Source: Eubacteriaceae bacterium (lineage in GTDB: Bacteria > Bacillota > Clostridia > Eubacteriales > Alkalibacteraceae). From it: a DNA stretch of 44,287 bases. How positions within the stretch are numbered: the stretch's first letter is position 1; each line of letters begins with the position of its first letter. Under the pieces are notes generated by a model. The model did not search any database and had not been told where the DNA came from. It saw only the letters and a program-made list of their open reading frames with translations. The stretch lies in contig JAAXUP010000009.1 of the NCBI GenBank assembly GCA_013335935.1, positions 1-44,287 on the forward strand, written 5' to 3'. This document shows positions 4,736-16,748 of this stretch, in pieces. A program made the translations under genes and the position numbers.

Positions 4736-5197
4736 TTATTTTTTCGCCCATTTTGAGGCTCTTTCAAGTTCGCCTGTCTTTAAGGGCCCTTCTGATTCCA
4801 TAACAAAAAATCCCTCTGGCTTCTTTGCCAGTACTCCTCCCTTTTGTTCAAGTTTACGTCCAATAGGTTCAGCCCCGTAACCAAAAAGCTTCACCATGAC
4901 ATTCAGCACTTTATTATTGACTTGTTTCGAATCGATTCGAGTGTCAAAAGCCATGACACTTACTCCTTTCAGCGAATTTGCCGGGAGCCCTATGATAAAA
5001 TCAAGTATCCCCTTCGTCGGCCGAAAAGCCCTGGTTGGAGACCCGGCAATCAGGAGTTCAACACCCTCCAATGCCCCTGTTTTAAGATCATTTACATGGC
5101 TGATCACAACCTCTTCAGGATCGAAGGCGCTTCCCATCGCTTCTGCAATCTGCTTGGTGTTTCCAAAAAAAGTATCATATACGATCAAGGTTTTCAT
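4736..5197 (-). CDS. Flavodoxin
   Basis: MKTLIVYDTFFGNTKQIAEAMG, which is the flavodoxin FMN-binding N-terminus. Confidence 0.75.
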   Translation of the reverse strand: MKTLIVYDTFFGNTKQIAEAMGSAFDPEEVVISHVNDLKTGALEGVELLIAGSPTRAFRPTKGILDFIIGLPANSLKGVSVMAFDTRIDSKQVNNKVLNVMVKLFGYGAEPIGRKLEQKGGVLAKKPEGFFVMESEGPLKTGELERASKWAKK

Positions 5198-5256
5198 AAA
5201 ATGCTTCCTTTCTTGTTCCTTTATAAAAATATAATCTTACCTTGACAATATCACAA

Positions 5257-5832
5257 TCAAATGGCAGTTTCCACACAATTATTAAAGAATATTATGCTGA
5301 AATACGTGACGGTATTTGGACCATTATTGTAATGGATCCCGCAAAATTCAGCCTGTTTGGTGACAAGAATGCCATATCCTTCTATTGCGGGATACATCCG
5401 TTCAGGAAACCTGCAGGGGGAATCAGGATACGTGCAAACTGCGCAGAGGGTACAGCCTTCCGTTGATAAAACAAGGGGATTCTCGTATTCCTTTCTGAAG
5501 AGATCTGCAACTTTATCCGTCAATTTTTCATGTTTTATCCGTGCTTCATGCCAGCCCTTGATATCAAAACTATTTTTCATCTCAGTAGCTGTGGTAAACA
5601 TAAACGCATTTTCGTAGCGGAAGCATTTTTCTTTGCACTCTTCCATAGTGCCTACTGCAGGAGGACATGCCCAGGATGTCCCATACATGCCGCAGCTATT
5701 CTTTTCACATAACCCTCGGACTTCGTCAGAGAATAGTATGCTTTCCGGTTTAAAATAGCAATGCTCATGAATCGGAAGCTTTTCTAATTCATTATTTATC
5801 AGATCAACTTTTTGTTTATTTTTCACATTCAT
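5257..5832 (-). CDS. DUF2284-type predicted metal-binding protein (Cys-rich)
   Basis: Cys pattern CEKNSCGMYGTSWACPP...CTLCAVC. Confidence 0.5.
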   Translation of the reverse strand: MNVKNKQKVDLINNELEKLPIHEHCYFKPESILFSDEVRGLCEKNSCGMYGTSWACPPAVGTMEECKEKCFRYENAFMFTTATEMKNSFDIKGWHEARIKHEKLTDKVADLFRKEYENPLVLSTEGCTLCAVCTYPDSPCRFPERMYPAIEGYGILVTKQAEFCGIHYNNGPNTVTYFSIIFFNNCVETAI

Positions 5833-8110: not shown

Positions 8111-8479
8111 TTATTTGGCCATTCCAAAAATTGCACCGGAAACAAAAGGTATCAACCAGATCAGCCATACGGCCAAACTGAATTTATGGAAGCTTGCTTT
8201 TACCTTATCGCTGTTTTTAATTAAAACCGCCGCTGCCCAAAGAGCATGGAAAAGCATCAGCACGATTGCCAGAAGTCCGGTTATCCCGTGAAAATTGAGT
8301 TTAAAACCGTCTCCTACGAGACTGCTCATCAGGGTAGTTCCAAGGGTATCGAACACTAACCCGATGATAAATACTGCCAGATGCCATTTTTTCAATTCAC
8401 CTTGTTTTTTTTCACTCCAAACACCTATGGTATAGAAGATGAGTGCCATGGTTATGGATAGTACTGCATAGATTAACAT
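8111..8479 (-). CDS. Small integral membrane protein (HsmA-like), co-transcribed with MarR
   Basis: 122 aa with 4 predicted transmembrane helices. Its 3' end overlaps the marR end. Confidence 0.45.
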   Translation of the reverse strand: MLIYAVLSITMALIFYTIGVWSEKKQGELKKWHLAVFIIGLVFDTLGTTLMSSLVGDGFKLNFHGITGLLAIVLMLFHALWAAAVLIKNSDKVKASFHKFSLAVWLIWLIPFVSGAIFGMAK

Positions 8480-8492
8480 GATTGATTCTCCT

Positions 8493-8957
8493 TTAAATTT
8501 TCTTCATAAATTGATGAAGAAGTGCCCTAAGCTGCCGGGCATTCTCCAAGTCGATATTTGCTGAACAGATCAGATCCCTGGGAATGTGTAAAGTTTCCTT
8601 CTTAAGGGTTTTTCCCTTCTCTGTCAAACTGATGAATACATTCCGCTCATCGGATCCACGCTTGCGGTCAAGTAATCCTAAAGCTTCCAGTTTCTTCAGT
8701 AGGGGCGTCAGCGTCCCGGAATCAAGATAAAGCCTTTCGCCCAAATCTTTTACGGTAACGTCGTCTTCCTCCCAAAGAGCCAATAATGCGATGTATCCTG
8801 TATAAGTTAACCCATAGGGCTCCAGCAGCGGTTTATATTTTTTTATGATTTCTTTTGAACTGACATATAATGCAAAGCAAAGCTGATGATCAAGCTTTAA
8901 CGCTTCTTCTGTAATCTCAAATTCTTCAGGTTTATTCATTCCTTCACGCCACCTCAA
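8493..8957 (-). CDS. MarR-family transcriptional regulator
   Basis: Winged-HTH MarR pattern (VTVKDLGERLYLDSGTLTPLLKKLEALGLLDRKR). Confidence 0.8.
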   Translation of the reverse strand: MRWREGMNKPEEFEITEEALKLDHQLCFALYVSSKEIIKKYKPLLEPYGLTYTGYIALLALWEEDDVTVKDLGERLYLDSGTLTPLLKKLEALGLLDRKRGSDERNVFISLTEKGKTLKKETLHIPRDLICSANIDLENARQLRALLHQFMKKI

Positions 8958-8984
8958 ATCCTATTATTTATCATTGCACACTAT

Positions 8985-9002
8985 TTAATTGCATGCAATT
9001 AA
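8985..9002. promoter_or_regulatory. Perfect 18-bp palindrome TTAATTGCATGCAATTAA. Candidate MarR operator.
   Basis: Seen directly, 28 bp upstream of the marR start. The half-site ATTGCA is also repeated just upstream. Confidence 0.45.
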
Positions 9003-9036
9003 TATACCAAATGAACTCCTTCATGTCAAACAATAT

Positions 9037-9078
9037 TTGGACAAGGGGACGTTTCGTTTGTCCCATAGTCCCCTTGCC
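9037..9078. repeat. REP-like palindromic element, inverted copy (REP-a)
   Basis: GGACAAgGGGACGTTTCGTTTGTCC is the reverse complement of the REP core at 9916 and 10712. It adds an outer 9-bp stem, CAAGGGGAC/GTCCCCTTG. Confidence 0.8.
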
Positions 9079-9086
9079 ATCTCATC

Positions 9087-9845
9087 CTAATTTTTCAGAG
9101 ATTTTACGACAGCACCTTTACTGAGCCCCATTACTCTGCCGATTTGCCTTATACTTGCTCCGGTATCCAAATATATTTGCTTCAATAATCTTTGCTTTTC
9201 ATTAGGATCCGTCAAAACCTTATCTTTAAAATATTCTCTACGGATAAGTATTGCTAAATCACTATCTGTATATATTTTTTTTTCTGAATACTCGAGACAG
9301 GTTCCCTTCACCAACTCCTTTGTAGTTTTTTCAAAGTTGTTTTTACTATCTATAAGTTCAAATATTATTTCCGGATCGATTATCTTAACATCACTTCTAT
9401 TTTCATACAAATTTATGTACGCCATGTAGCTGCTCCATTCATATTCCTCGCATGACGCAACCATATAAGCATTCACCGGATTTTGATGGATATACCGCAG
9501 AACAGAAATCAGGTACTCCTCGTTCTCAACAGGTTCACTTAAAAATCTGTTCTGAAAAAGATGACCTACTCTTGCGTACTTGCCATTATGCCATTGTGCA
9601 TAACTAATTGCGATCCTTTTAATACTTATTCCAAGTTCTTCTCCTTCTTTCATCAGGATATGAACGTGGTTATTCATCAGACAATATCCAAGCAAAGAAA
9701 ATTTTCCGGTTTCCTTTGATTTTGCAATGGAATCAATAAATTTTCTTCTGTCCTCGTTATCAATAAATATATCTCTTTTATCTAAACCTCTAAGCATTAC
9801 ATGATGAATTCCCGTGAGACTTTTTTTTCGATTTTGTCTCGGCAT
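9087..9845 (-). CDS. REP-associated tyrosine transposase (RAYT, IS200/IS605-like Y1 HUH transposase), with a C-terminal HTH extension
   Basis: HuH motif NNHVHILMK and catalytic-Tyr region LRYIHQNPV. ~120 aa of extra C-terminus ends in an HTH (ASIRQIGRVMGLSKGAV). Start taken at MPRQ, preceded by a GGGGTGAT RBS. Confidence 0.8.
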   Translation of the reverse strand: MPRQNRKKSLTGIHHVMLRGLDKRDIFIDNEDRRKFIDSIAKSKETGKFSLLGYCLMNNHVHILMKEGEELGISIKRIAISYAQWHNGKYARVGHLFQNRFLSEPVENEEYLISVLRYIHQNPVNAYMVASCEEYEWSSYMAYINLYENRSDVKIIDPEIIFELIDSKNNFEKTTKELVKGTCLEYSEKKIYTDSDLAILIRREYFKDKVLTDPNEKQRLLKQIYLDTGASIRQIGRVMGLSKGAVVKSLKN

Positions 9846-9848
9846 AAA

Positions 9849-9945
9849 ATCACCCCTATTAGACAATTATACAGTCAAACAGGGGTTCCTTTATTCTTTG
9901 TAAAATTTAATGTAGTTGGACAAACGAAACGTCCCGCTGTCCGGG
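9849..9945. repeat. Composite repeat, copy 1: hairpin H1 (AATCACCCCTATTAGAC..CAGTCAAACAGGGG), spacer, then REP-b (TGGACAAACGAAACGTCCCGCTGTCCGGG)
   Basis: Same architecture as copy 2 at 10654-10745. The 29-bp REP core is identical between the two. Confidence 0.75.
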
Positions 9946-9947
9946 TT

Positions 9948-10592
9948 TTAAATTAATTCAGCCCCTAACTGATATACATTTTCTAAATCGATAGGGAAGA
10001 CTTCCTCATGTCGCTTTAGCCTCTGCTCTACATCAAACATATCGGAAACGTACTTTGAGTAGTCTTTAAACTGAAGGGTTTCTGTTGAGAAATAGGAACG
10101 GGCATCTCCTTGAAAAAGCATTTTACTCAATCTTTCATTGCTAGACAAACTTTCTTCCAAATGCATCTTTTTAACCGCTTCTTCTGGAGCATTCATGGTA
10201 TAGATGAATAAAGTATTTAGCTTGCCAGTAAACAGTGATCGCTGTTTTTCTTTGGTATAAATTAAATATGGGAACCATAATCTTTCAAGAAAGCATCTCA
10301 GCATACCTGTTACGTTCCCGAAATAAATGGGTGAACCAAAAATAACTCCATCCGCATCTCCGAAGTTTTGAAGCAGAGGCGTCAGATCATCCTTCATGGC
10401 ACATTTTCCGTAATTTTTCCCATCTTTTAATTTACAGGCAAAACAACTGGTACAACCTCTGTAGTCTAAATCGTATAGATTGATCAGCTCTGTGTCTGCA
10501 CCTTTAGAAGAAGCACCTTCTAATGCACTCTTTAATAATTTCGAGGTATTCCAATCTTTCCTGGGGCTTGCATTATAAGCAACAACTTTCAT
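9948..10592 (-). CDS. Flavodoxin-like NAD(P)H-dependent FMN reductase family protein
   Basis: MKVVAYNASPRK...GSPIYFGNVTG is the typical NADPH-dependent FMN reductase / iron-sulfur flavoprotein N-terminus. A Cys cluster CTSCFAC is present. Confidence 0.65.
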   Translation of the reverse strand: MKVVAYNASPRKDWNTSKLLKSALEGASSKGADTELINLYDLDYRGCTSCFACKLKDGKNYGKCAMKDDLTPLLQNFGDADGVIFGSPIYFGNVTGMLRCFLERLWFPYLIYTKEKQRSLFTGKLNTLFIYTMNAPEEAVKKMHLEESLSSNERLSKMLFQGDARSYFSTETLQFKDYSKYVSDMFDVEQRLKRHEEVFPIDLENVYQLGAELI

Positions 10593-10653
10593 AAGACCAC
10601 CATCCTTTAAAATCAATTATAACAAAACGCGGAATGTTTAAACAGCGCAATAA

Positions 10654-10745
10654 ATCACCCCTATTTGACTGCGAACAGTCGAATAGGGGTGATACGTAGA
10701 TTAAAGTTAGCTGGACAAACGAAACGTCCCGCTGTCCGGGGTTCG
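10654..10745. repeat. Composite repeat, copy 2: near-perfect 16-bp inverted repeat CACCCCTATTTGACTG/CAGTCGAATAGGGGTG, spacer, then REP-c
   Basis: Seen directly. It lies immediately 3' of the aroD stop codon. Confidence 0.75.
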
Positions 10746-10747
10746 AT

Positions 10748-11503
10748 TTATGAAATTCGCATCAGGTTCAGGATATTTCTGGCATCATCGACACCGATCT
10801 GCCCAGGTGCGGAAATCTGTTTAGCTGCTGCAAAGGTCATGCAAGACCCTACCAATTCTCCGGCAAGACGGGATACTACCCCCAGAGCTCCCATGGACAT
10901 GGTGATGCATGGCCGGTCTCCTTTGGATTTCTTCATTTCTAATGTTGCGCTGAGCAAGGTCATGACATCCTCTTCGGATTGGGGCATGACCGCAATTTTT
11001 GTGATATCCGCGCCATACTCCTGCATTTTCATCAGTCGTTTTACCAATTCTTCTTTTTCAGGGGTCTTGAAAAAATCATGGTTTGACATAATGACTTTTA
11101 CATGGTTTTCATGTGCGTATGCAATCAGCTTGTTGATCTCCTCGGCTGTGCTAAAGAGCTCCACATCCACCAGGTCGATCAAGCCGCTTTCGATAGCGGC
11201 CCGATTGAGGGCGAAATATTTCTCTTCGGACATCTCATGGACGCCCCCTTCTTTTTTGGTTCTGAAAGTGAAAAGCAGCGGTTTAGAGCAGATTTCCCGG
11301 ATCTTCCCCAGAAGAGCTTTGACCTTATCCAGATCTTCTACGTCTTCATAGTGGTCGACTCGAAATTCTACGACATCATAGTCAACAGAACTCAGAAATT
11401 TGAATTCCTCTATAACGCCTTCTTCTGTTTTTCCAACGATGGGAACACAGATTTTAGGTGCGCCTTCATTGAAAATGATATCTTTAACTTTTAATGTTTT
11501 CAT
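10748..11503 (-). CDS. aroD: 3-dehydroquinate dehydratase, type I
   Basis: AroD family pattern across its length. Confidence 0.8.
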   Translation of the reverse strand: MKTLKVKDIIFNEGAPKICVPIVGKTEEGVIEEFKFLSSVDYDVVEFRVDHYEDVEDLDKVKALLGKIREICSKPLLFTFRTKKEGGVHEMSEEKYFALNRAAIESGLIDLVDVELFSTAEEINKLIAYAHENHVKVIMSNHDFFKTPEKEELVKRLMKMQEYGADITKIAVMPQSEEDVMTLLSATLEMKKSKGDRPCITMSMGALGVVSRLAGELVGSCMTFAAAKQISAPGQIGVDDARNILNLMRIS

Positions 11504-15340: not shown

Positions 15341-15529
15341 ATGATCGAACACTTGGAAAACACAGAAGAAATGGATTTATATGAAATTTATAATCTCCTG
15401 CCTAAAATCAACTGTCGTCGCTGCGGTGAAGAAACCTGCCTTGCTTTTGCTGCTATGGTGGAATGCGGGACAAAAAAAATCACCCAATGCAGGGTGTTAA
15501 TCGAAAAGGGAGTGAAAAACCATGAGTGA
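15341..15529 (+). CDS. Small protein with the putative Fe-S cluster domain (RnfB/CFeSP N-terminal-like)
   Basis: CRRCGEETCLAFAAMV Cys motif. Confidence 0.45.
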   Translation: MIEHLENTEEMDLYEIYNLLPKINCRRCGEETCLAFAAMVECGTKKITQCRVLIEKGVKNHE

Positions 15530-15977
15530 AAATGTATCTTTTGAAAGCGCCGAAACCTGCCTGATCATGGAACCAAGACATAGCAATCCTGCCGGGAATG
15601 TGCACGGAGGGGAACTGTTAAAAATCATGGATAACATTGCAGGCATCGTGGCTCATAAGCATGCAAGAGGCAATGTCGTGACAGCCCGAATAGACGAAAT
15701 CGTCTTCCACTGCCCCATAAATATTGGAGATATCATCACTTGCACGGGACAGCTTACTTATGTGGGAACAAGCTCCATGCAAGTCATGGTGACCGTACAT
15801 ACCCTGAAAAACTATACGGATACCTTGGTCGCTTTAACAGCATTTTTCACCATGGTCCATATGAAAGAAGGAAAACCTGCAAAGGTTCCGCGACTTACGG
15901 TGACCACTGAGGAAGAGAGAGACCTATACCTTTTAGGGGAAAGAAAGTACAAAGAAATCAAGAAAAAATACATGTAG
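15522..15977 (+). CDS. Hotdog-fold acyl-CoA thioesterase
   Basis: YciA/4HBT-like pattern (NPAGNVHGGELLKIMDNIAGIVA). Confidence 0.75.
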   Translation: MSENVSFESAETCLIMEPRHSNPAGNVHGGELLKIMDNIAGIVAHKHARGNVVTARIDEIVFHCPINIGDIITCTGQLTYVGTSSMQVMVTVHTLKNYTDTLVALTAFFTMVHMKEGKPAKVPRLTVTTEEERDLYLLGERKYKEIKKKYM

Positions 15978-15992
15978 TATCCCAGACGCAAA

Positions 15993-16022
15993 TAAAGACG
16001 GAGCAAGTCCGTCTTTATTCGC
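15993..16022. terminator. Rho-independent terminator (bidirectional)
   Basis: aaagacgga gcaa gtccgtcttt followed by a T-run. Confidence 0.7.
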
Positions 16023-16065: not shown

Positions 16066-16497
16066 TCACACACGTTTCAGGATTATGGAATCCATTTCCT
16101 TAACGTTCTTTGAAAAATCACCTACGAGTATGGCTGCCTCCACAGGCTGAATCCTGTCGATGAACTTTTTCATACTTTCAGGTGTATCATTTTTAATACG
16201 ATATGATGTGGCATAGTAGCCCTCGTATGCTAAACCCAGAACGTAGGAACTCAGTTTACCCTTAACGGAAGAATAAATATCATCATGTACAAGAACCAGA
16301 AGTTTTCCCTTTGGATAATTTCTTTCTGAAAAAACTTCGAGATATTCCAACCCTTTAGGAAAAGCAGGCCTTGTCTGCAACTCGGCGATAAAATTAATTC
16401 TTGAAAGCAGTGCGGTCATTTGAGATTTGAACTCGATTCTTCCAGCAAGCACCTGACGTATTTTCGTAAGGTCTGGCAACGAAAACGCTAAAGCCAT
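16066..16497 (-). CDS. Hypothetical protein
   Basis: ORF with an AAAGGAG RBS before MALAFSLPDL. No family recognised. Confidence 0.4.
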   Translation of the reverse strand: MALAFSLPDLTKIRQVLAGRIEFKSQMTALLSRINFIAELQTRPAFPKGLEYLEVFSERNYPKGKLLVLVHDDIYSSVKGKLSSYVLGLAYEGYYATSYRIKNDTPESMKKFIDRIQPVEAAILVGDFSKNVKEMDSIILKRV

Positions 16498-16748
16498 TTT
16501 CTCAACTCCTTTCTGATTCAAACAAGAAAAGCAACTGCGTATTCACAGCTGCTCCAATGACAAATAAAATAAGAATCATGGGCAACTGGCTACCTTTGGA
16601 TCTCCCTTTAGGCCCTACAGTTTTGCGTCCCCGCTTTTCAGCAGGTTTGCCTTTTCAACTAATTCAAAATTGTATATCTGTATGTATTTATGACAATTTT
16701 ATACCCTGGATATCTCTTGTTCAAACATTTTCCTGCGATGCTCCTGTC

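Follow-up and report, generated by a model that had tools for sequence, protein, structure and literature searches.

The window analysed here is the whole 44,287-nt stretch of contig JAAXUP010000009.1 from a Eubacteriaceae bacterium (assembly GCA_013335935.1). It contains a transposase gene, tnpA, that is bracketed by two inverted copies (a and b) of one hairpin, with a third copy (c) near the end of aroD. The locus probably represents a TIRtron/REPtron-type unit, that is, a gene for a RAYT-like HUH/Y1 transposase acting on single-stranded DNA together with two inverted cognate hairpins. The features on which this reading rests are as follows.

9036–9066, forward strand: hairpin a, the right end of the unit, recognised by an exact 18-mer, by the covariance model R1 and by the inverted-repeat pairs I1 and I2.
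9068–9078, reverse strand: a', a partial copy that abuts copy a and consists of GGCAAGGGGAC, equivalent to the 5' arm plus GGGGAC.
9087–9845, reverse strand: tnpA, encoding a 252-aa HUH/Y1 tyrosine transposase of the RAYT/TIRYT type, assigned with Pfam, NCBIfam, AlphaFold (AF2) and Foldseek.
9915–9945, reverse strand: hairpin b, the left end of the unit, recognised by the exact 18-mer, by R1 and by a position and orientation that fit the rule of the family.
10710–10740, reverse strand: hairpin c, recognised by the exact 18-mer and by R1, and oriented as b.

The tnpA product is identical to NCBI entry NTW71166.1 ('MAG: transposase', where MAG denotes a metagenome-assembled genome). It matches the Pfam model Y1_Tnp (E = 8e-11), and its sole NCBIfam match is the equivalog REP_Tyr_transpos (NF047646), with a score of 64.5 bits that falls under the cut-off of 80; no IS200 model in NCBIfam matches it at E <= 1. 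The HUH motif is formed by H60-V-H62, the catalytic Tyr118 lies within the stretch RYIHQNP, and a WSS motif occupies residues 137–139. An alignment of 38 homologues showed His60, His62, Tyr118, Ile119, Asn122 and Pro123 to be invariant, as are Trp137 and Ser139 of the WSS motif, which sits 19–21 residues beyond Tyr118 and whose Ser138 is at least 90% conserved. When the profile of this alignment was searched against the PDB, a single match was returned, E. coli TnpA-REP (4ER8), with an alignment covering the HUH and YI..NPVK regions, and the TnpA proteins of IS608 and ISDra2 were absent from the results of this sequence search. The AF2 model of the protein (pLDDT 90.3) gave 4ER8 as the top Foldseek match (E = 1e-7, target TM 0.77), with ISDra2 and IS608 TnpA ranking below it at E values of about 5e-5. 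The protein also has an extra helical C-terminal tail of ~110 aa (residues ~145–252), in which AF2 modelled the helices 194–205, 214–228, 232–239 and 243–251 with confidence; from this model, a three-helix helix-turn-helix (HTH) is predicted at residues ~214–251. No Bac_DnaA_C domain was found in the tail by the Pfam search.

The locus belongs to a protein family that is large and little studied, and it is unremarkable within it. More than 1000 protein relatives were found, the named ones mostly from Clostridia and the closest 50–54% identical, and nearly all of them occur on one or a few contigs each. The suggestion that a Firmicutes locus of this kind is less commonly documented is fair for the literature; the protein family itself is large. 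One relative, the Acetobacterium woodii homologue (locus L003, 2501–3260, CP002987.1), is called as a 224-aa protein due to an in-frame TAG; past this codon, the same reading frame still encodes a recognisable HTH (…SIRQLSRVLGIGKRIIENAIKDQE), which leaves a pseudogene or TAG read-through as the explanations. At ~1094, an additional hairpin separates two Transposase_31 genes of this locus.

The 18-mer GGACAAACGAAACGTCCC occurs exactly at 9046–9063 on the reverse strand and at 9918–9935 and 10713–10730 on the forward strand. A fourth site is absent from the 44,287-nt window even with up to three mismatches allowed, and 100 dinucleotide shuffles of the window gave 0 matches. The longer 25-mer arm at 9039–9063 is 92% complementary to both 9918–9942 and 10713–10737, and the copies differ in that CT in copy a is GC in copies b and c. 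R1, which was built from the hairpins of other genomes only, with the window left out, found the same three sites, scoring a with 33.5 bits (E = 1e-7), b with 20.5 bits (E = 1e-3) and c with 20.3 bits; the next match in the window reached only E = 1.8. The three copies of a core resembling repetitive extragenic palindromes (REPs), with a inverted relative to b and c, that the original prediction described were therefore recovered by both approaches. All of them are located inside 1.7 kb of the 44 kb.

Hairpin a has the stem GGACAA/TTGTCC with a G.T closing pair and the loop GGGACGTTTCG, and lies 20 nt beyond the tnpA stop codon in an orientation inverted relative to the gene. Hairpin b is on the tnpA strand, 70 nt 5' of the tnpA ATG and 3 nt past the stop codon of an FMN-reductase gene, the latter placement having escaped earlier notice. 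Hairpin c starts 8 nt beyond the aroD stop (TAA, 10748–10750). Copies a and b accordingly bracket tnpA in inverted orientation, as was proposed from the outset. The extra stem claimed for copy a is also present: CAAGGGGAC (9042–9050) pairs with GTCCCCTTG (9068–9076), the latter within stub a', and the pairing of a' with 9040–9050 has a single-stranded DNA folding energy of −10.7 kcal/mol (z = −3.7). The hairpin copies in the window have no T-tail, and a search of 8800–10900 against Rfam gave zero matches to known RNA families at E <= 1. A strong sigma-70-like promoter (TTGACA, 17-nt spacer, TATATT, upstream TG) at 9001–9029 on the reverse strand adjoins hairpin a and serves a MarR-family gene (8493–8939), so that the right end of the unit abuts the promoter of a regulator. 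Elsewhere in the window, a perfect palindrome, TAAAGACGGAG…CTCCGTCTTTA, at 15993–16017 lies between convergent open reading frames (15522–15977, forward; 16066–16521, reverse); it is probably an ordinary bidirectional terminator and unrelated to the hairpins described here, R1 giving it 10.4 bits (E = 1.8).

Comparison with related loci defined the hairpin as a family. The gene-flanking element set comprised 44 related loci, mostly Clostridial, and the metagenome set 80 loci. The loop motif is present on both sides of the homologue in Paramaledivibacter, A. woodii, Halocella and Alkaliphilus, and also flanks homologues in many of the 80 metagenome loci. The family hairpin consists of a 6–10-bp stem of free sequence round a conserved 11-nt loop, G-GGGACG(G/T)TTC-N, and stems such as GAGTCAAC/GTTGACTC, GGATCACG/CGTGATCC and AGGCAA/TTGCCT differ from one another. 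Without any stem filter, the 83 gene-flanking loop-motif sites in the 44 loci were 75% paired in register, compared to 33–48% when the partner arm was slid, and these sites contained 64 different 7-nt arms. The covariation score was 0.776, against 0.243 for shuffled and at most 0.24 for slid arms, in 82 stem-selected instances, a selection that biases the percentage paired but not the diversity of the arms. Over 85 instances, only the loop and a single CA/TG pair of the stem carried sequence information. An alternative stem within the core, GGGAC/GTCCC, was rejected since the relatives fix the loop and vary the outer arms. No GTAG- or CGTC-type foot is conserved within ±30 nt of the 85 hairpins, and the GTAG that stands beside copy b in the window is shared by neither a nor c; the canonical REP reading was rejected on these grounds. 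More distant relatives have variant loops of the same design (GGGGACGGGGT, GGGGACGGAGTA and GGGGACAGG), and the exact sequence GGGGACAG was found in three of their loci (L005, L024 and L039).

The arrangement around the gene also follows a rule. Upstream of the gene, the hairpin shares the strand of the gene in 26 loci and not in 2; downstream, 25 loci have it inverted and 2 do not. Copies b and a of the window are arranged in the same way. Partial copies beside full hairpins have a polarity of their own: 23 of the 24 seen in all loci begin at the 5' arm and end within loop bases 0–6, none is derived from the 3' arm, and they are usually tandem 'stutters' located just 5' of a full hairpin (for example, L120 at 8150–8200, L041 and L083). 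The window stub a' has the same make-up as these 23. This polarity suggests a directional process, possibly a nick in the loop or slippage at a stalled fork; the breakpoints are spread over loop positions 0–6, for which reason no firm call of a single nick position was made.

The orientation of the end hairpins bears on the possibility that the locus is an autonomous insertion sequence of the IS200/IS605 type, which would transpose as a whole unit and of which copy c would be a leftover end from an earlier insertion. In IS200/IS605 elements, the hairpins of both ends face the same way on one strand, whereas the end hairpins here are inverted. The presence of a Y1_Tnp domain would suit such an element, but the lack of any NCBIfam IS200 match and the closeness to TnpA-REP by both sequence and fold speak against it. 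The copy number is also unfavourable to this explanation: there is one tnpA copy in the window, with no tnpB adjoining it, and one per replicon in Acetoanaerobium noterae, Halocella and A. woodii. A plasmid-borne mobile family was rejected because only 12 of 72,556 plasmid records had any match to a relative, 2 of them full length; the tnpA family is mostly chromosomal. On the other side, the neighbouring genes of the homologues differ in every genome examined, two homologues adjoin other transposase genes, and no part of the window is poorer in GC than tnpA, at 34.5% (window mean 43.1%, standard deviation 3.3% for 700-nt windows). The low GC content indicates a foreign composition, and tnpA, a single-copy gene, was probably acquired horizontally, as judged from its base composition. 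Decayed copies bracketed by hairpins in an uncultured Garciella sp. and internal-deletion derivatives in A. noterae, both described below, are further features that an insertion sequence could produce. We consider this explanation very unlikely overall; the ordinary IS200 TnpA with IS-type ends against which the original prediction set its own claim was not what we found.

Evidence that the hairpins spread came from other genomes. A scan of the GTDB representative genomes, a set that does not include the source MAG, with the core GGGACGTTTCGTTTGTCC gave 15 loci, close to the chance estimate, and none of these genomes contains the exact 18-mer more than twice. Several of the 15 loci are nevertheless real family elements. 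Inverted doublets with starts 35–57 nt apart were found in Bacillota MES5 and in two Syntrophomonas MAGs, where they are extragenic and adjoin stop codons, and no tnpA homologue is present in the 8-kb loci around them. Extra hairpins a few kb away from the gene occur in L031, L055, L058, L061 and L079. In L031, two tandem hairpins lie 5' of the tnpA homologue, with two more, in inverted orientation, 4.6 kb downstream (5526–5608; 11061–11148), and the genes between them encode an EF-G-like GTPase, a glutaminyl-tRNA synthetase (GlnRS) and a DUF218 protein; because the interval encodes GlnRS and the EF-G-like protein, these hairpins are interpreted as intergenic insertions rather than as the borders of a cargo. 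In the Garciella locus (L105), two decayed tnpA fragments, one a 35-aa N-terminal piece and the other a C-terminal piece, each have inverted hairpins round them (2573–2869 and 4954–5421) and look like intermediates between the full unit and a gene-less doublet. The window itself has no gene-less inverted doublet by R1, and only the stub a' beside a.

The one complete replicon examined for dispersal was that of A. noterae (NZ_CP154629.1, 2.63 Mb), a record classed as a 'plasmid' in which just 4 features are annotated. Its homologue, at 34% identity, occurs once, and its hairpin gave 32 BLAST places in this replicon compared to at most one in any other record. Eleven 50-kb stretches, about 21% of the replicon, were sampled, and about 40 loop-motif copies were found in them. 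Zero loop-motif copies were found in the sampled 450–550 kb, and five distant stretches contained a single lone loop-motif match without hairpin context. Many of the copies are inverted doublets with starts 65–116 nt apart, whose interior corresponds to the final ~40 nt of tnpA followed by the right hairpin. Since this interior is the 3' end of tnpA, the doublets are internal-deletion derivatives, and their unrelated outer flanks favour insertion at new sites, so that segmental duplication was rejected as their origin. The scanned part of the region that holds the copies (L128, L126 and L120) has genes of an accessory type, encoding Fic/DOC, Schlafen AlbA_2 and IrrE-like peptidase proteins, SelO and ABC transporters.

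These dispersed doublets also bear on a different explanation, in which the protein has been domesticated for DNA binding or nicking, the hairpins are HTH operators or shielding terminators, and the extra copies arose by recombination or slippage. A loop conserved across genera, the predicted C-terminal HTH, the fixed distances of the hairpins from the promoter and the stop codon, and the tandem 'stutter' partials are all in keeping with this. Positions +21 to +24, 3' of the hairpin, are moreover enriched in T in the family (36–47 of 85 instances against a background of 29%), and the hairpin H1c, described below, resembles a terminator. However, the combination of covarying stems and a fixed loop argues for recognition of a folded single strand rather than of a duplex operator, the catalytic HUH residues and Tyr are invariant, the copies in the window are without the T-tail, and gene-less doublets occur with unrelated flanks or in 8-kb loci devoid of tnpA. 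We therefore regard domestication as unlikely.

Several observations weigh against the TIRtron/REPtron-type unit that we favour. In A. noterae, the ~40 copies all lie at 341,965–423,176, an 82-kb region that ends at tnpA; such one-sided, regional confinement is unlike the genome-wide dispersal of REPs and could have a cause other than transposition. In the window, R1 found no hairpin copy in the remaining 42.5 kb, and copies b and c, at ~20 bits each, have weakened stems. The loop is conserved across genera at protein identities of only 31–54%. REPs normally co-evolve fast with their RAYT, so that conservation of this kind is unusual for them and would fit a conserved protein-binding operator too. 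As for the protein, the Pfam matches of the tail at 214–251 (HTH_23, HTH_38, HTH_28 and Sigma70_r4) are all sub-threshold, and the catalytic steps that would apply to the HTH-tailed branch are all drawn by analogy.

The surroundings of copies b and c add the following features.

9849–9886, reverse strand: H1b, an imperfect hairpin in the tnpA leader, from sequence reading, the inverted pairs I6 and I10 and folding.
9948–10595, reverse strand: an FMN-reductase/flavodoxin-like gene (Pfam FMN_red, E = 1e-20; GC 37.3%).
10654–10693, reverse strand: H1c, an almost perfect 18-bp stem closed by a UUCG loop, with UUUAUU after it; the arms are 94% complementary, and the hairpin is homologous to H1b.

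Copies b and c sit in homologous segments of ~105 nt (9842–9955 and 10647–10750) that include the H1 hairpin, a relationship missing from the original prediction. The segments have the same orientation, lie about 800 nt apart and share non-hairpin sequence too; they are 73% identical over 109 columns, with a perfect 29-nt core and ~64% identity outside it. The partner hairpin H1 that was predicted just past the aroD stop next to copy c is indeed there, with 18-nt arms (H1 arm ATCACCCCTATTTGAC). Copy c, in contrast, had been taken for an additional direct REP copy, and the alignment instead makes c and H1c a diverged duplicate of the tnpA left flank and no independent REP insertion. The ~64% identity outside the core indicates that the duplication is old and that the hairpin core has since been kept or homogenised. 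The H1b loop contains TGTATAAT, possibly an extended −10 promoter element by its sequence, and the 3' arm of H1b contains a GGGGTGA ribosome-binding site. The RNA fold of 10640–10750 on the reverse strand, with H1c as its main stem, has an energy of −40.5 kcal/mol (z = −5.0). A simple promoter and terminator scan called neither H1b nor H1c, so the roles given to them rest on sequence reading and folding; H1c is a probable aroD terminator that appears to have arisen by reuse of a spare copy of the tnpA left end and leader.

The duplication raises the question of whether the source genome has a repeat family at all. The three copies might simply be the two ends of the unit and the remnant of one local duplication of ~800 bp, in which case the term 'REP', which implies a multi-copy family dispersed through the genome, would not apply. 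The 44 kb hold just three copies, confined to 1.7 kb; the ~105 nt common to b and c, equally oriented and ~800 nt apart, extend beyond the hairpin; the A. noterae copies stay beside the gene; and the 18-mer is found no more than twice per GTDB representative genome. All of this is consistent with two ends and one remnant, a reading that we give a chance just short of even. On the other hand, the perfect 29-nt core of b and c, against ~64% elsewhere, points to continuing constraint or conversion on the hairpin, and relatives carry dispersed doublets. This alternative concerns copy number only and is compatible with a TIRtron/REPtron-type unit. In either case, the system in the window looks almost quiescent, consisting of the end hairpins a and b, the stub a' and a single left-flank duplicate that is old and has diverged.

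The FMN-reductase gene, which separates the b segment from the c segment, is regarded as a bystander and not as a proven passenger. A GC trough at 8700–10500 (35–39% against the window mean of 43%) covers tnpA and the FMN-reductase gene, roughly from a to c, and is a weak hint that the two arrived together. The low GC of both genes is likewise a weak hint that the window may hold a composite transposon spanning a to c with FMN-reductase as its cargo; against this, there are no conserved neighbour genes across the homologues, and the analogous arrangement in L031 reads as intergenic spread.

The published systems closest to this locus are the TIRYT/TIRtron and RAYT/REPtron elements. TIRYT genes have flanking inverted repeats that share GGGGWSAS, and the main text of the paper describing them mentions neither Firmicutes nor Clostridia (Di Nocera et al. 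2013, PMC3733652). In the TnpA-Y1 classification, subclass 2.1 is the HTH-tailed group, equated with TIRYTs; REPs with a GT[AG]G foot were found for subclasses 2.2, 2.4, 2.5, 2.7 and 2.8, whereas automatic and manual searches yielded no REP-like sequences for 2.1 (Quentin et al. 2018, PMC6006769). The present locus resembles TIRYTs in a RAYT-like Y1 enzyme that exceeds classical RAYTs in length and whose C-terminal tail is predicted to contain an HTH, in a conserved Ser motif after the catalytic Tyr (WSS at 137–139 here) that may correspond to the published one, in inverted repeats with a GGGG-A-C motif in place of GTAG REPs, and in repeats that are moderately abundant and often form dimers or clusters. 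The GGGGACG(G/T) of the window and its closer relatives fits 6–7 of the 8 positions of GGGGWSAS. The repeat differs from that published for TIRYT/2.1 in being a hairpin with a covarying stem and with the conserved motif in its loop.

With REPtrons, composed of RAYT/TnpA-REP genes and REP/BIME sequences (Nunvar 2010, PMC2817692; Ton-Hoang 2012, PMC3333891; structure 4ER8, PMC3479197; Corneloup 2021, PMC8266576), the locus shares a single-copy gene bracketed by inverted hairpins, an enzyme for which TnpA-REP is closest by sequence and fold and which has the YI..NPVK motif in its catalytic region, and relatives with gene-less inverted doublets that are extragenic and beside stop codons. It departs from them in its score against the NCBI RAYT equivalog (64.5 bits against 80), in the absence of a GT[AG]G foot, in the C-terminal tail with its predicted HTH, in an 11-nt loop common to several genera rather than a species-specific palindrome, and in copies that are few and local wherever examined. 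The sub-cut-off score, the predicted HTH tail and the missing GTAG foot favour the TIRYT/TIRtron label over that of a classical REPtron. By published descriptions, the protein would fit better in the HTH-tailed branch (TIRYT; TnpA-Y1 subclass 2.1-like), the likeness to 2.1 being one of length, tail, Ser motif and inverted repeats bearing GGGGAC. The initial assignment as a REPtron with a RAYT thus stands as regards a RAYT-like HUH/Y1 enzyme with inverted bracketing hairpins, and is not supported as regards the classical type, given the score below the RAYT cut-off, the missing GTAG foot and the predicted HTH tail.

Group 1 RAYTs also occur in Clostridia, with ~12 copies of the flanking 16-mer per replicon (Bertels et al. 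2017, PMC5581495). As in REPIN-RAYT/Group 1 systems (Bertels and Rainey 2011, PMC3116915; PMC5581495), inverted hairpin doublets appear to be the mobilised unit and the gene is single-copy and mostly chromosomal; unlike REPINs, the A. noterae doublets keep the 3' end of tnpA, in the manner of MITE-type deletion derivatives, and occupy one region of the replicon. The locus has in common with the IS200/IS605 TnpA elements IS608 and ISDra2 the HUH/Y1 fold and sub-terminal hairpins presumed to be recognition elements, and differs from them in its inverted instead of direct end hairpins, the absence of an IS200 model match, its single-copy gene, the lack of tnpB and its 110-aa tail. Full-text literature searches, in a library that is incomplete, on the motif and on RAYTs, REPINs or TIRYTs in Clostridia or Bacillota yielded no account of the conserved-loop hairpin.

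Computation establishes the fold, the catalytic residues, the covarying fixed-loop hairpin with its rule of orientation and, in relatives, gene-less doublets with unrelated flanks. Y1 HUH enzymes such as the TnpA proteins of IS608 and ISDra2 and E. coli TnpA-REP bind folded single-stranded DNA hairpins and cut and rejoin DNA via a 5'-phosphotyrosine intermediate (PMC3333891, PMC3479197, PMC8266576). By analogy, the enzyme encoded here would act on single-stranded DNA, such as that at a replication fork, by binding the hairpin in its folded form, and the loop sequence is probably the determinant that it recognises. Cleavage may then take place near or in the loop, with rejoining through a 5'-phosphotyrosine link. 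Such an enzyme could mobilise gene-less inverted doublets, REPIN- or MITE-like derivatives formed by internal deletion, mostly over short distances and near its own gene. In the window, an old duplicate of the left flank, c with H1c, now lies at the end of the aroD transcript, where it probably acts as a terminator. A more specific, joint proposition is that Clostridial HTH-tailed RAYT-like enzymes, probably of subclass 2.1, have a REP-like substrate with the 11-nt loop GGGGACGKTTC in a covarying stem, that the partial copies mark a nick in the loop and that short-range hops build a regional cloud of copies by the gene. We hold this proposition tentatively and think it somewhat doubtful as a whole. 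If the nick does lie in the loop, it would resemble that of rolling-circle Rep proteins more than that of IS608 TnpA.

For the window, the result is mainly a cleaner annotation, with a TIRtron/REPtron-type unit in place of an ordinary insertion sequence. It matters more at the level of the family, where it gives a large branch of HUH/Y1 enzymes, so far uncharacterised and with more than 1000 relatives, mostly in Clostridia, a concrete candidate DNA substrate that can be tested. The candidate substrate is an 11-nt loop shared across genera, held inside a stem of which only pairing is needed, and this conserved-loop hairpin questions the published statement that the subclass 2.1 branch is without REP-like structures.

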